Shown piece by piece: positions 3,589 to 11,926 of a stretch of DNA of 64,000 nt (within the stretch, counting starts at the first letter, position 1; every line of letters starts with the position of its first letter). The notes under the pieces were generated by a model. It searched no databases. It was not told where the DNA came from and saw only the letters and a program-made list of their open reading frames with translations. The position numbers were made by a program, and so were the translations under genes. This DNA comes from Solirubrobacterales bacterium (lineage in GTDB: Bacteria > Actinomycetota > Thermoleophilia > Solirubrobacterales > 70-9), in contig JANWHD010000017.1 of assembly GCA_025450585.1 (NCBI GenBank), positions 33,668 to 97,667 of the forward strand, in the 5' to 3' direction.

Positions 3589-3661
3589 GCACCAGTGCCT
3601 TAATCGGTGAAAGGGCCGGCCTTAAAAGCCGGAGATCCGGGTTCGAGCCCCGGCTGGTGCA
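3589..3661 (+). tRNA. Atypical 73-nt tRNA with anticodon UAA (reads UUA/UUG) and type-I architecture (4-nt variable loop). The isotype is ambiguous.
   Basis: Hand-folded cloverleaf. Acceptor stem GCACCAG/CTGGTGC, U8. D-arm CCTT-AATCGGTGA-AAGG with G18G19. Anticodon stem CCGGC/GCCGG with loop C-U-[UAA]-A-A (anticodon at 3623-3625). Variable loop AGAT. T-arm CCGGG-TTCGAGC-CCCGG. Discriminator A at 3661, no encoded CCA. The anticodon loop, D-loop and A73 are Leu-like, but the long variable arm of bacterial tRNA-Leu is absent. Confidence 0.75.
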
Positions 3662-3691
3662 TTGCCACGGGATGTCTACCCGTAACTAGCT

Positions 3692-9288: not shown

Positions 9289-10589
9289 GCGGGCTGCCGC
9301 CCGGCCCCCGCACGCCGAGGCTGCTGCAGTCGAGGCGCTGGTCGCGTGAGCCCCTGCCCTTCCTCGAGCGGTGCCGGGCGCGCTACGGCCCCACGTTCAC
9401 GCTGCGCCTCCGCCACCTCGGTACCTGGGTCCTCCTCTCCGACCCCGAGGACGTCAAACGGGTCTTCTCTGCCGACACCGACGATCTCGGGGTGGGGGTG
9501 CCGAACCTCGCCCTGAGGCCGGTGCTGGGGGCGCACTCGGTGATGTTGAGCGAGGAGCCGGAGCACATGGCCCGCCGCAAGATGATGCTTCCCCGCTTCC
9601 ACGGCGATCGCATGCGGGAGGACGCCGAGGTGATGACCGAGTTGGCCCGGCGCGAAGTGCGCGCCTGGCCGGTCGGCGAGCCGTTCAGGCTCTGGCCGCG
9701 CATGCAGGCGCTCACGCAGGAGGTCGTGATGCGGGCCGTCTTCGGCGACGACCAGGGTCGCCTGGACCGCCTGCGGGTCCTGCTCACGAACCTGACTGAC
9801 GCGGTCAACGACGAAGGTCGCCTGCGCAAGCTCGCCCTCTTCGGCCCGGGTTGGCTCGAACGCAGCCGCGGCTGGCGGCAGGCGATGGATCCGGTCGAGA
9901 AGGAGGTGCTGGCCGAGGTTCGGCGCCGGCGCGCCGAAGGCGAGAACGGTCGCAAGGACGCGGTCTCGATCCTGATCGAGGCGCGCAACGAGGACGGCTC
10001 CCCGCTGAGCGAGAAGGAGCTGCGCGACGAACTGCTCACCCTGCTCACCGACGGCCCCACATCGAGCTCGCTCGCCTGGGTCTTCGAGCGGCTGCTGCGT
10101 CACCCCGAGAAGCTGGAACGCCTGCAGCAGGAATTGCTCGCCGGCGAGGGGGATGCCTACCTGGACGCGGTGATCAAGGAGACCCTGCGCCTGCGCCCAC
10201 CGGTCTCGGTCGTCGTGCGACGCCTGCTGCGGCCGGCGACCCTGGGCGGCTACGACCTCCCCGCGGAAACGCTGGTGGCCCCCTGCGTCTACCTGGTCCA
10301 CAACAGCGCGGAGATCTACGAGGACCCGGGCAGCTTCGTCCCCGAGCGATTCCTCGAGCGGCGCGCTGCCGTGCCGACCTGGATTCCCTTCGGCGGCGGC
10401 GCCCGGCGCTGCCTCGCCGCCAGCTACGCCGAACAGGAGATGAAGCGCGTGGTTCGCACCGTGCTCGAGGAAGTCGAGCTGGAACCGGTCGACACCGGCT
10501 CGGAGCGGATCTCCCGCGCCGCCATCGCCTTCAGCCCGGCCCAGCACGGCCTCGTCGTCGCCAGGCCCCGGACCCCCGTCTACGCATGA
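9285..10589 (+). CDS. Cytochrome P450
   Basis: 434-aa ORF with the ExxR motif (KETLRLRPP) and the heme-thiolate loop FGGGARRCLAASYA. Confidence 0.9.
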   Translation: MSGLPPGPRTPRLLQSRRWSREPLPFLERCRARYGPTFTLRLRHLGTWVLLSDPEDVKRVFSADTDDLGVGVPNLALRPVLGAHSVMLSEEPEHMARRKMMLPRFHGDRMREDAEVMTELARREVRAWPVGEPFRLWPRMQALTQEVVMRAVFGDDQGRLDRLRVLLTNLTDAVNDEGRLRKLALFGPGWLERSRGWRQAMDPVEKEVLAEVRRRRAEGENGRKDAVSILIEARNEDGSPLSEKELRDELLTLLTDGPTSSSLAWVFERLLRHPEKLERLQQELLAGEGDAYLDAVIKETLRLRPPVSVVVRRLLRPATLGGYDLPAETLVAPCVYLVHNSAEIYEDPGSFVPERFLERRAAVPTWIPFGGGARRCLAASYAEQEMKRVVRTVLEEVELEPVDTGSERISRAAIAFSPAQHGLVVARPRTPVYA

Positions 10590-11926
10590 GCGCCGACCAC
10601 GACCTGATCATCGTCGGCGCCGGCGCCAAGGCAGCCGGGATCGCGACCAAGGTCCACGTGGCCAACACGCTGGGGCTGGCCCGGCTCTCGGTCAAGGTGA
10701 TCGAGGGGACCGAGGTCGCCGCATCCTGGAAGGGGCGCAACGGGATGACCTCGGGCGAGGAGCCGCTGGCCGTGACCCCGATCAAGGACGTCGGCTTCCC
10801 CTACCGCAGTCACGTGGAGTTCGGCGAGGCCGGTGAGGCGATAGACGCGGCGATGGCCCAGTTCACCTGGCAGCAGCACATGATCGCTACGCGCCGCTAC
10901 GCCCGCTGGGTCGACGCCGGCTCCCCCCAGGTGCGCCACCGCGACTACGGCGAGTACCTGTCCTGGGTGCTCTCACGCGCGACCGAGGGAATCGAGCACC
11001 TGCGCGCCCGGGTCTCCCAGGTGGCGCTCGACGAGGGGGGCGAGCGCTGGGTGGTGGAAGCCGAAGAGGACGGTGGCACCTCGCGCCACACCAGTCGCGC
11101 CCTGGTCCTCACCGGTCCCGGCATCCACCGCGCCTTTCCGCACGAGCCCGCCGTGGTCGACCGCGTCTTCCACTGCGACAGCAAGCGTGAGGAGTTCGCC
11201 CGCATCCCGGAGGGGGAGCGCTGCGACGTCGCGATCGTCGGCGGCGGGGAGAGCGCGCTGAGCGCGACGATGTTCCTGCGCGAGCTGCGGCCCGACTGCA
11301 GCTTCACGGTCTACACGCCGCTATTGCCGATGAGCCGCGGCGAGAGCGTCCTCGAGAACCGCGTCTTCTCGAATCCCGACGTGGTCGAGTGGGAGTCGCT
11401 CGACCTGCAGACCCGACGCGACTTCGTCAAGCACTCCGACCGCGGCGTCTTCGACCCGCCCAGCCTGGGGAAGATCGCCTACGACGACCGAGTCGAGTTC
11501 GCCCTGGGCCGGGTGACCGATGTCGGCGAGGCCGCGAACGGAGAAGGGGTGAGCCTCGAGTGCGAGTCTCCCGAAGGCGTTTTCCAAAGCGAGCACGACT
11601 ACGTCGCCAATTGCACGGGCTTCGACCTGCTCGCCCAGCTGCGTACGCTCTTCCCGGCCGCGACACGGGAGGAGATAGAGCGCCGGGTGGGCGGGCTCTG
11701 GGGCCGGCCGGCTGGCTCCGAGGTGCCGATCGGGCGCTTCCTCGAGCTGCGGGGAATGCAGCCGTGCCTTCACATTCCCGGTTTGGCGGGGTTGAGTCAG
11801 GGCCCGGGCTTCGCCAACCTGGGAGCGCTGGGACTGCTCTCCAACCGCGTCCTGCAGCCCCTCCTTTCCGGTGTCCATAGCTCCGGTTCGGGGGAAATAC
11901 TTGACACTCACAAACCGGTCGCATAG
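10586..11926 (+). CDS. FAD/NAD(P)-binding flavoprotein monooxygenase (lysine/ornithine N-monooxygenase-like, two dinucleotide-binding motifs)
   Basis: The internal ATG at 10586 overlaps the P450 stop (ATGA). Sequence MSADHDLIIVGAGAKAAG... with a second Rossmann motif DVAIVGGGESALS. The upstream part of track ORF 9851..11926 is out of frame over the P450. Confidence 0.7.
   Translation: MSADHDLIIVGAGAKAAGIATKVHVANTLGLARLSVKVIEGTEVAASWKGRNGMTSGEEPLAVTPIKDVGFPYRSHVEFGEAGEAIDAAMAQFTWQQHMIATRRYARWVDAGSPQVRHRDYGEYLSWVLSRATEGIEHLRARVSQVALDEGGERWVVEAEEDGGTSRHTSRALVLTGPGIHRAFPHEPAVVDRVFHCDSKREEFARIPEGERCDVAIVGGGESALSATMFLRELRPDCSFTVYTPLLPMSRGESVLENRVFSNPDVVEWESLDLQTRRDFVKHSDRGVFDPPSLGKIAYDDRVEFALGRVTDVGEAANGEGVSLECESPEGVFQSEHDYVANCTGFDLLAQLRTLFPAATREEIERRVGGLWGRPAGSEVPIGRFLELRGMQPCLHIPGLAGLSQGPGFANLGALGLLSNRVLQPLLSGVHSSGSGEILDTHKPVA

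Follow-up and report, generated by a model that had tools for sequence, protein, structure and literature searches.

To our knowledge, the pyrrolysine cassette (pylTSBCD) is the only one known to join a tRNA, a synthetase and amino acid biosynthesis genes in one locus. Here, we describe a locus of similar layout in a 64,000-nt stretch of DNA from a Solirubrobacterales bacterium (assembly GCA_025450585.1, contig JANWHD010000017.1, positions 33,668 to 97,667 of the forward strand; "the window" below is this whole stretch). A 73-nt tRNA with anticodon UAA (3589-3661, + strand) is followed on the same strand by a gene for a class-I synthetase paralog derived from arginyl-tRNA synthetase (ArgRS; 560 aa, 3692-5374), and then by a row of biosynthetic genes, the first of which encodes a PabA-PabB fusion (PabAB) with the domains of a 4-amino-4-deoxychorismate (ADC) synthase. 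We consider it fairly probable that this cassette acts as a self-contained module for making a non-protein p-aminoaryl amino acid and loading it onto a private tRNA. As the best explanation of the whole we tentatively combine this module with a non-ribosomal fate of the charged tRNA. An initial annotation, made from the sequence alone, had already proposed a dedicated tRNA and a divergent ArgRS-like enzyme at the head of an aminoaryl operon with a pyl-like layout, and this structural proposal held in our analysis: the linkage is universal among the related loci, the tRNA shows covariation, and the enzyme has kept its fold and lost its arginine pocket.

As in pylTSBCD, a dedicated tRNA, a synthetase and amino acid biosynthesis genes share one locus, and as in pylTSBCD the module seems portable, with cassette types that differ by lineage and apparently two of them in one genome. 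The two systems nevertheless differ in several respects. The synthetase is a class-I ArgRS derivative here and the class-II PylRS there; the codon is a rare sense codon here (UUA; ACA or AGA in relatives) and a stop codon there; and the amino acid would be derived from chorismate rather than from lysine. No recoded target was found here in 17 syntenic families and the 64-kb window, and ribosomal use is putative. The cassette genes have no homology to PylS or PylBCD, as Pfam and NCBIfam assign them to an ArgRS-type enzyme and chorismate-pathway genes.

Two further comparisons concern the tRNA and the biosynthetic genes. The bldA gene of Streptomyces encodes a tRNA-Leu(UAA), a normal long-arm type-II leucine tRNA. 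Again, the cassette tRNA has a UAA anticodon, and its host is likewise a high-GC actinobacterium with extremely few TTA codons, but this tRNA has a class-I shape, a 4-nt variable loop and a body common to UGU and UCU tRNAs (for comparison, a canonical 87-nt tRNA-Leu(UAA) is found in the unrelated locus L113). Pathways of the PapABC/CmlD type make p-aminophenylalanine. They share with the cassette an ADC synthase and an AroQ-type mutase, and a sister cassette (L170, see below) adds a prephenate-dehydrogenase-like gene and an aminotransferase. The window operon, in contrast, is without PapC and contains a GNAT, an amidohydrolase, a P450 and an N-hydroxylase instead, with no assembly line nearby.

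In Streptomyces and Kitasatospora, the aminoacyl-tRNA synthetase (aaRS) isoform ProRSx is encoded beside an anomalous tRNA, tRNAProX, which has one body and differing anticodons by species (PMC10404621). The cassette shares with this system the isoform beside an anomalous tRNA, the single tRNA body with anticodons of several amino acids, and actinobacterial hosts. It differs in that the parent enzyme is ArgRS and not ProRS, in that its anticodons are those for the rarest codons, in that the pair is translationally coupled to an amino acid biosynthesis operon, and in that the pocket is remodelled, judging by its sequence, so that the parental specificity would be lost. With VlmL/VlmA, Fem/PacB, CDPS, PEARL and SbzA the cassette has in common a synthetase inside a biosynthetic operon and an aminoacyl-tRNA that would be the activated donor, and an N-hydroxylase is found in both the cassette and the valanimycin pathway. 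VlmA, Fem/PacB, CDPS, PEARL and SbzA, however, use housekeeping tRNAs and a recognisable transferase, whereas the cassette tRNA is private and the eight genes of the cassette include no transferase domain. A 2026 review of tRNA-dependent natural-product pathways makes no mention of any ArgRS-like enzyme (PMC12945691). Lastly, hydrazine synthetase systems pair a Lys N6-hydroxylase with a cupin-MetRS-like enzyme (PMC12376268, PMC8664883), and the cassette resembles them in having an NbtG-type N-hydroxylase and a class-I aaRS-like ATP-dependent enzyme that could in principle O-aminoacylate a hydroxylamine. It has no cupin, however, and its full-length paralog resembles ArgRS rather than MetRS, is equipped with tRNA-binding domains and is linked to a tRNA. 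In summary, the cassette fails to show at least one defining feature of pylTSBCD, of ProRSx/tRNAProX, of the tRNA-dependent natural-product steps and of the hydrazine synthetases. An ArgRS-like enzyme with a linked tRNA was not described in the literature that we searched, which included reviews and a Thermoleophilia marker paper.

The synthetase paralog and its linked tRNA

More than 2,300 relatives of the ArgRS-like protein were found, and those nearest to it (60-97% identity) belong to uncultured Solirubrobacterales, many of them with complete chromosomes of 2.5-3.0 Mb. In all 81 loci having upstream DNA, a 72-73-nt tRNA of common body was found just upstream of the paralog, its 3' end lying ~24-36 nt before the start codon in 12 aligned loci, and a linked tRNA is also present in the metagenome relatives having upstream DNA. 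Likewise, eight genes are colinear in 68 of the 68 related loci that have at least 8.5 kb of downstream DNA. The check on synteny that the initial annotation had called for, namely whether tRNA, aaRS-like gene and pabAB co-occur in relatives, thus gave a clear positive answer. Because the linkage holds in 81/81 loci and the cloverleaf covaries (see below), the tRNA is a functional gene that travels with the synthetase paralog.

The paralog reaches only 82.2 bits on the argS equivalog TIGR00456, far below the cutoff of 261.65. A profile alignment to canonical ArgRS (hhalign) nevertheless reached a probability of 99.9% over 479 columns, from the N-terminal domain through the helical C-terminal domain, and the ArgRS architecture is entire, with an N-terminal domain, a Rossmann core with the HIGH motif and a helical anticodon-binding-type domain. 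The HIGH motif is intact in the window enzyme and invariant among the paralog loci. A Foldseek search with an AlphaFold model of the paralog returned full-length ArgRS for all of the top 20 matches (TM 0.58-0.64, 12-18% identity); the model is moderate (pLDDT 68, pTM 0.73) and was not used for pocket geometry. The residues that bind arginine are, in contrast, replaced. The position of yeast E148 is N113 in the paralog, and the canonical DGTSvYiTQD aligns by hhalign with DGLP---TQH, in which the Tyr (yeast Y347) is deleted and the Asp (D351) has become H322. Across 78 loci these replaced pocket states vary little or not at all, and the family as a whole comprises 209 clusters at 50% identity (E <1e-30) with these motifs in common. 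Read from these alignments, the paralog is an ArgRS by fold and not by its arginine pocket.

The pocket also differs between branches of the family. The E148 position is occupied by Asn in both PabAB-linked groups (xNF[W/G]D[A/P]N) and by Asp (VDFCDPN) in cassettes of the methyltransferase, lysine-aminomutase and aminotransferase types, and by this comparison of sequences the pocket residue co-varies with the type of the neighbouring biosynthetic genes. On the contig of the sister cassette L170, a canonical argS (342 bits versus the cutoff of 261.65) lies 3.5 kb upstream of the paralog; therefore, the paralog and the housekeeping enzyme coexist in this sister group, from which we infer the same coexistence in window-type genomes. 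A tblastn search with two ArgRS-type queries, one with a canonical pocket (L119) and one atypical (L113), against all fetched loci gave paralogs only. The L113 protein (306-2016) is ArgRS-like with another altered pocket, having VSFSNPN for the acidic residue and DGTLLVYSQLAG for the ...Y.T.D motif; no tRNA adjoins it, and it may be a further type of ArgRS-derived paralog.

The tRNA of the window was detected by ARAGORN and scores 72 bits on the Rfam tRNA model (gathering score 29), in agreement with the earlier description of an atypical but well-formed tRNA 30 nt upstream of the genes on the same strand. It is class-I-shaped and has a variable loop of 4 nt in place of a long arm, which is atypical for the anticodon UAA, and it has C10 (not G), U20, G1-C72, C2-G71 and A73; CCA is not encoded. 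In an alignment of 26 distinct tRNA sequences, the cloverleaf pairing is kept in 98% of cells and compensatory changes occur in 11 of the 21 pairs, a number that none of 500 shuffles reached.

The anticodon varies between loci. We found UAA in ~31 loci including the window and UGU in ~50 (~60% of related species); the UGU version has G1-C72, C2-G71, G35 and U36. Complete chromosomes with the cassette include OY970260.1, OY969915.1 and OY970377.1 (UAA) and OY970300.1, OY969774.1 and OY970376.1 (UGU). In distant cassettes, a tRNA(UCU) lies beside the paralog in L085, L093, L165 (Conexibacter woesei DSM 14684), L167 and L172, and a tRNA(CCU) in L087. The L167 tRNA(UCU) shares its acceptor stem, T arm and 4-nt variable loop with the window tRNA; in the L087 tRNA(CCU), the C10 D stem is shared and the acceptor stem is near-identical. 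Judged by these shared features, the tRNAs of differing paralog cassettes are one lineage with four anticodons, all for codons that are rare in these genomes. In rough neighbor-joining (NJ) trees of the window-type clade, the earliest branches carry UGU, and UAA is found in one large and one small nested clade; the trees are crude. Within clades the anticodon is invariant, and positions 32, 38 and the anticodon stem are variable. There is no column of the synthetase alignment that separates UAA loci from UGU loci, and so the enzyme is apparently blind to positions 35-36. This suggests that the synthetase does not read these positions of the anticodon, and recognition of the highly conserved acceptor and D-arm appears more likely.

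The biosynthetic operon and its sister cassettes

Gene domains were assigned with Pfam and NCBIfam profile searches. The ATG of the paralog gene at 3692 is 30 nt past the tRNA 3' end and is not preceded by a Shine-Dalgarno-like sequence. The paralog is followed, all on the + strand, by PabAB (715 aa, 5371-7518; Pfam GATase and Chorismate_bind), a GNAT N-acetyltransferase (172 aa, 7524-8042; Acetyltransf_1/_7/_10), an HDAC-fold amidohydrolase (320 aa, 8039-9001; Hist_deacetyl, 6e-42), an AroQ-type mutase (96 aa, 8998-9288; CM_2, 1e-20), a cytochrome P450 (434 aa, 9285-10589; Pfam p450, 1e-54) and a flavin N-monooxygenase (FMO) of the Lys/Orn type (446 aa, 10586-11926; Lys_Orn_oxgnase). The order of these seven genes is as first described, but an eighth, co-conserved gene had been overlooked: a PQQ-type beta-propeller lipoprotein (517 aa, 11936-13489, + strand; PQQ and PQQ_2 domains, lipobox LAGC), which starts 9 nt past the FMO stop codon. 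It had also been stated that every junction in the row of seven is an overlap. This is true of five of the six, where the overlaps are 4-nt ATGA or GTGA, but not of the PabAB/GNAT junction, which is a 5-nt gap (TGAgtcgcATG).

No terminator-like site was found in 3300-12300, an interval covering the tRNA and the entire operon, and a scan for sigma-70 consensus promoters gave no match. Directly 5' of the tRNA there is a GC-rich hairpin, GGGCTC...GAGCCC (3562-3581, +), tentatively a leader or promoter region, and upstream of the hairpin a semi-conserved CTAGGATGC motif (3524-3532), possibly a -10 element. Both recur at corresponding positions in an alignment of 12 loci, and they may constitute the promoter and processing leader of a tRNA-mRNA co-transcript.

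The domain annotation, from which the gene functions are taken, points to an aminoaryl pathway. PabAB scores 365.7 bits on the TIGR00553 pabB model (cutoff 328.4). The CM_2 mutase is an ordinary AroQ domain with PDB matches to the AroQ chorismate mutases 2d8d and 1ecm, and by homology its role is inferred to be PapB-like. The GNAT is a single 172-aa Acetyltransf_1 domain with weak NCBIfam likeness to amino-acid/antimetabolite N-acetyltransferases, and the HDAC-type protein is nearest to acetylpolyamine amidohydrolases (APAH; best PDB match 3q9b, 2e-32). Only weak PDB matches, to CYP170 and CYP51, were obtained for the P450. The FMO is homologous over its full length to the L-lysine N6-hydroxylase NbtG (PDB 4d7e, 'L-Lys monooxygenase', 2.8e-60, 208 bits). 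Of the PapA/PapB logic that had been suggested for the operon, the ADC synthase passes its cutoff, and the CM_2 domain is a putative PapB that may act on ADC rather than on chorismate; a PapC is missing here, and a PapC-like gene is present in the sister cassette.

A plausible order of steps would be the following. PabAB would convert chorismate to 4-amino-4-deoxychorismate, from which the AroQ mutase would make 4-amino-4-deoxyprephenate. Oxidative decarboxylation and transamination would then give an amino acid of the p-aminophenylalanine type; the enzymes for these two reactions would act in trans here and are encoded in L170. The NbtG-like N-hydroxylase and the P450 would tailor the amino acid by N- and C-oxygenation, probably on an N-acetyl-protected form, with the acetyl group added by the GNAT and removed by the HDAC-type amidohydrolase. 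Finally, the ArgRS-derived enzyme would attach the product, by an ATP-dependent esterification, to the tRNA whose gene lies 30 nt upstream of its own. Enzymes of the ArgRS type require tRNA even for amino acid activation. Recognition would be through the tRNA body (acceptor stem, and D arm with U20) and not through positions 35-36, and the anticodon would therefore be free to change.

The sister cassettes L170 and L173 represent a Conexibacter-like group of ~70 members, in which the paralog is 37% identical to the window enzyme. Again, the paralog is preceded by a tRNA(UAA) of window-type body, whose end is 3 nt away in L170 and 36 nt away in L173, and downstream of the paralog come a class-IV aminotransferase, a prephenate-dehydrogenase-like gene, a CM_2-VOC fusion, an Ldh-like dehydrogenase and PabAB. 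By annotation, these amount to PapA and PapB together with a PapC-like gene and a transaminase; the accessory genes are wholly unlike those of the window. In C. woesei and its relatives, more distant paralogs precede SAM methyltransferases, an ATP-grasp enzyme and an AMP-binding enzyme, and others have as neighbours lysine 5,6-aminomutase subunits, a B12-radical-SAM enzyme, or an aminotransferase with a methyltransferase. Three methyltransferase/ATP-grasp cassettes (L165, 5932-9811; L167, 2299-8827; L172, 2589-7935) share an upstream SDR, an ABC-F ATPase and a TPR protein. ABC-F ATPases are a family of ribosome-associated factors, and this neighbour could be a link to translation or mere synteny. 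We also noted that P0323 (L172, a methyltransferase-type paralog) and P0468 (a PabAB-type paralog fragment) are both listed with a longest contig of 3,434,971 bp; probably, two differing cassettes of the paralog family lie on one chromosome there.

In a relative (82-kb JGI contig with P0441; L173, 1-320), the DNA directly upstream of the tRNA(UAA)-paralog cassette encodes a tyrosine integrase, together with a TrwC relaxase and a TraG-type coupling protein, which suggests a conjugative element integrated at or beside this tRNA. For the window itself we considered and rejected a genomic island attached at the tRNA: the tRNA 3' end is not repeated in the window, and the flanks are core chromosome (tig, clpP, clpX, valS, folC, mreBCD, pbp2, rodA, rne, obg). 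An anti-phage defence system was rejected as well, since PADLOC gave no match. No non-ribosomal peptide synthetase (NRPS) or other assembly line was found near the window operon. The genes clpP and clpX are usually adjacent. In the window, clpP (23334-23927) and a clpX-like gene (39406-40467; an open reading frame (ORF) of only 353 aa counted from its first start) are separated by ~15 kb of lower GC content (24000-39400; 0.59-0.66 versus ~0.69), with DUF4238, TPR, PPC/P-domain, GGDEF and GNAT proteins and several family-less ORFs; no integrase was found in this stretch. An ordinary tRNA-Cys(GCA) at 60833-60904, downstream of the proB/proA region, has no relation to the cassette.

Codon usage and the search for recoded sites

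We compared codon usage between the UGU and UAA lineages in the fetched loci, using simple gene calls; the contrasts comprise few independent lineages and are based on the crude trees. Among 30 A/T-ending codons, ACA is the most depleted in UGU lineages and TTA the most depleted in UAA lineages. Per locus, ACA accounts for 0.9% of Thr codons in UGU versus 2.9% in UAA lineages (Mann-Whitney p = 1.4e-7), and GC3 and the remaining A-ending codons are alike between the two. A similar difference was observed for the eight operon genes alone (0.91% versus 2.83%, Fisher p = 1e-10; the ACT control gave an odds ratio of 1.5). In the small nested UAA clade, ACA is above that of its UGU sisters, a modest contrast. 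The TTA counts are small, with 7 in ~128,000 codons versus 26 in ~187,000. Since an extra ordinary tRNA-Thr would predict more ACA and we observed less, the depletion fits a tRNA that may reach the ribosome with the wrong cargo.

The ACA codons that remain in UGU lineages fall in Thr columns as frequently as the ACT and ACG controls do, and ACA behaves as a normal Thr codon in these lineages. At column 485 of the aaRS-like gene, a conserved Thr is encoded by ACC in 25 of 27 UAA loci and by ACA in 20 of 51 UGU-lineage genomes, and the synthetase gene in UGU lineages thus often holds the codon of its own tRNA, despite the rarity of ACA. A recoded target in cis, looked for as columns with TTA in UAA lineages, ACA in UGU lineages, or both, was rejected within the scope of 17 syntenic families, including the PQQ-type gene, which gave only this synonymous ACC/ACA Thr site and scattered singletons. 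No column of these families pairs TTA in UAA lineages with ACA in UGU lineages, and the PQQ-type gene has no conserved TTA or ACA codon. In the window there are four in-frame TTA codons among ~17,900, none of them convincing. We also observed TTA at column 536 of PabAB in L020 and L022, two related UAA-lineage genomes, where most of the other sequences have Arg (31) or Glu (9), but the case is isolated.

For the UCU-type cassettes, depletion of the corresponding codon AGA was considered and rejected. AGA is enriched in Conexibacter loci instead, and therefore the avoidance argument cannot be extended to these cassettes. In L165 (CP001854.1:1045370-1067112), ten genes (2078-14514) lie around the tRNA(UCU) and paralog, and 38 of their 370 Arg codons are AGA, as against 0 of 157 in the five downstream genes (14529-20964); in this AGA island, AGA is often the majority of A-ending codons in genes with a GC3 of ~0.96. 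L085 is like L165 in that AGA is well above AGG.

Possible fates of the charged tRNA and rival readings

The initial annotation had left two fates for the charged tRNA, namely use by a non-ribosomal transferase and decoding of UUA. Both survive, the first as a possibility that we hold tentatively and the second as the less likely one; no transferase was found in five cassette types, and no recoded codon in the families and the window described above. We put forward, with some reserve, a non-ribosomal step in which the aminoacyl-tRNA would act as activated donor or carrier, weakly ahead of a site-specific decoder. The repeated switching of the anticodon together with the lack of conserved target codons slightly favours this non-ribosomal use. 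Candidate acceptors would be a hydroxylamine or amine made by the operon (O- or N-aminoacylation) or, alternatively, an envelope or cofactor molecule tied to the co-conserved PQQ-type lipoprotein. Some charged tRNA would reach the ribosome, and selection would shift the anticodon from UCU/CCU to UGU and on to UAA, for the rarest sense codon, which would limit leakage into translation. The genomes would deplete the codon that matches the tRNA.

Several observations weigh against the module and this fate. According to the Pfam domain calls, the window operon lacks both PapC and an aminotransferase, and none of the five cassette types contains an aminoacyl-tRNA transferase of the Fem, CDPS, PEARL/LanB, L/F-transferase or DUF2156 type. 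The tRNA retains all elongator features (G18G19, T-loop, U33, A37, G1-C72). Its UGU version bears the E. coli-type threonine identity set, so ThrRS may simply charge it. With an AlphaFold model of pLDDT 68, pocket geometry stays model-limited, and the codon-usage contrasts depend on few independent lineages and crude NJ trees. Finally, AGA is common in the Conexibacter loci, where it occurs within Arg columns, and the Conexibacter tRNA(UCU) probably decodes AGA as Arg in normal translation.

Because no aminoacyl-tRNA transferase was found and the tRNA is elongator-like, ribosomal incorporation remains a serious rival, although we regard it as somewhat unlikely. Paralog and tRNA would then be an orthogonal pair, and the ribosome would insert the aminoaryl amino acid at UUA (at ACA in UGU lineages, and at AGA for the amino acids of other cassettes), possibly in a site-specific manner elsewhere in the genome, or statistically or conditionally. 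Such a sense-codon expansion would account for the finding that only tRNA and synthetase are common to all cassette types, a dedicated transferase being absent, and for the full elongator architecture. It would also fit an anticodon that is invariant within clades and always for a rare A-ending codon, the arrival at UAA in at least 2-3 PabAB-linked branches, the reciprocal depletion of the matching codon, the pylTSBCD layout and the synteny of ABC-F translation-factor genes with methyltransferase-type cassettes. It is harder to reconcile with the occurrence of ACA in Thr columns like ACT and ACG, and with its alternation with ACC at a conserved Thr of the synthetase itself. Nor are there columns with TTA opposite ACA in the 17 syntenic families, or a convincing case among the four in-frame TTA of the ~17,900 window codons. 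Repeated anticodon switches are hard to fit with fixed essential target codons, and the UGU tRNA should be a substrate of ThrRS as well. In its strongest form, the locus would be a complete natural system for a further encoded amino acid, p-aminoaryl and possibly N-oxygenated, at UUA, with ACA in the sisters and AGA/AGG in related cassettes; this we find more doubtful again.

Two other readings separate the tRNA from the biosynthetic genes or the enzyme from its new substrate, and both are weaker than non-ribosomal use and sense-codon expansion. In the first, which we consider very unlikely, the tRNA is coincidental, either a housekeeping tRNA-Thr(UGU) that has mutated in some species or a tRNA used as an integration site, and the ArgRS-like enzyme is a tRNA-independent ligase (cf. 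MshC and the MetRS-like domain of hydrazine synthetases). The identity elements of the UGU version (G1-C72, C2-G71, G35, U36) and the reading of ACA as Thr would be explained. So would the pairing of an NbtG-like N-hydroxylase with a class-I aaRS-like ligase, which recalls the hydrazine synthetases (PMC12376268, PMC8664883). Some distant family members have no adjoining tRNA, and in one relative an integrase and a conjugative element abut the tRNA. However, the unusual body (C10, 4-nt variable loop, U20) is common to the UCU, CCU and UAA tRNAs of distant cassettes, structural selection persists after the Thr anticodon is lost, and no att-like repeat of the 3' end is present in the window. The paralog keeps its tRNA-binding N-terminal and anticodon-binding-type domains and has no cupin domain, and an additional tRNA-Thr predicts more ACA, the opposite of what is seen.

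In the second, which is less likely still by our estimate, the locus is a mistranslation module like that of ProRSx: the paralog would charge a tRNA of drifted anticodon with arginine or a similar canonical amino acid, Arg would then be inserted from time to time at Leu or Thr codons during stress, and the operon would be unrelated. The format fits the published system of an aaRS isoform beside a multi-anticodon tRNA lineage (PMC10404621), the matching codon is depleted, and in two related genomes TTA stands in a mostly-Arg column of PabAB. Against this reading, the acidic residue at E148 is replaced by Asn, the pocket Tyr is deleted and the second Asp is His in the hhalign alignment. The coupling to PabAB is strict (68/68, with overlapping stop and start codons) and recurs in an independent cassette with other accessory genes, and the pocket residue co-varies with the type of biosynthetic gene.

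Resistant aaRS duplicates are common inside biosynthetic clusters, and the protein has an ArgRS fold, but a self-resistance copy in a cluster whose product inhibits housekeeping ArgRS, put forward earlier with the tRNA adjacent by coincidence, is rejected as exceedingly improbable, given the loss of the arginine-binding residues, the 82 bits versus the argS cutoff of 261.65, a tRNA that is linked in 81/81 loci and is no tRNA-Arg (neither the Arg anticodon base C35 nor A20), and a large family (~200 clusters at 50% identity) with varied neighbours.

Duplication followed by divergence is the presumed origin route of new synthetase/tRNA pairs. In this family, intermediate stages are visible, from a paralog with a tRNA(UCU) lacking A20, through the change of the pocket, to the migration of the anticodon to UGU and UAA. 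The cassette would be a second natural layout that joins a tRNA, a synthetase and amino acid biosynthesis, unrelated to that of pyrrolysine and built from a class-I ArgRS and a sense-codon tRNA. If the charged tRNA is consumed by the ribosome, its cargo would be a new proteinogenic amino acid, and if sense-codon reading is true, the family would provide the first natural case of a code expanded at a sense codon, observed at several stages of its evolution. If its use is non-ribosomal, the cassette would represent a new kind of tRNA-dependent metabolism with a private tRNA. In both cases, paralog and tRNA are a candidate for a naturally orthogonal pair that handles aromatic-amine amino acids, and with ~200 clusters at 50% identity, some of them in the cultivable Conexibacter woesei, the family is directly testable.

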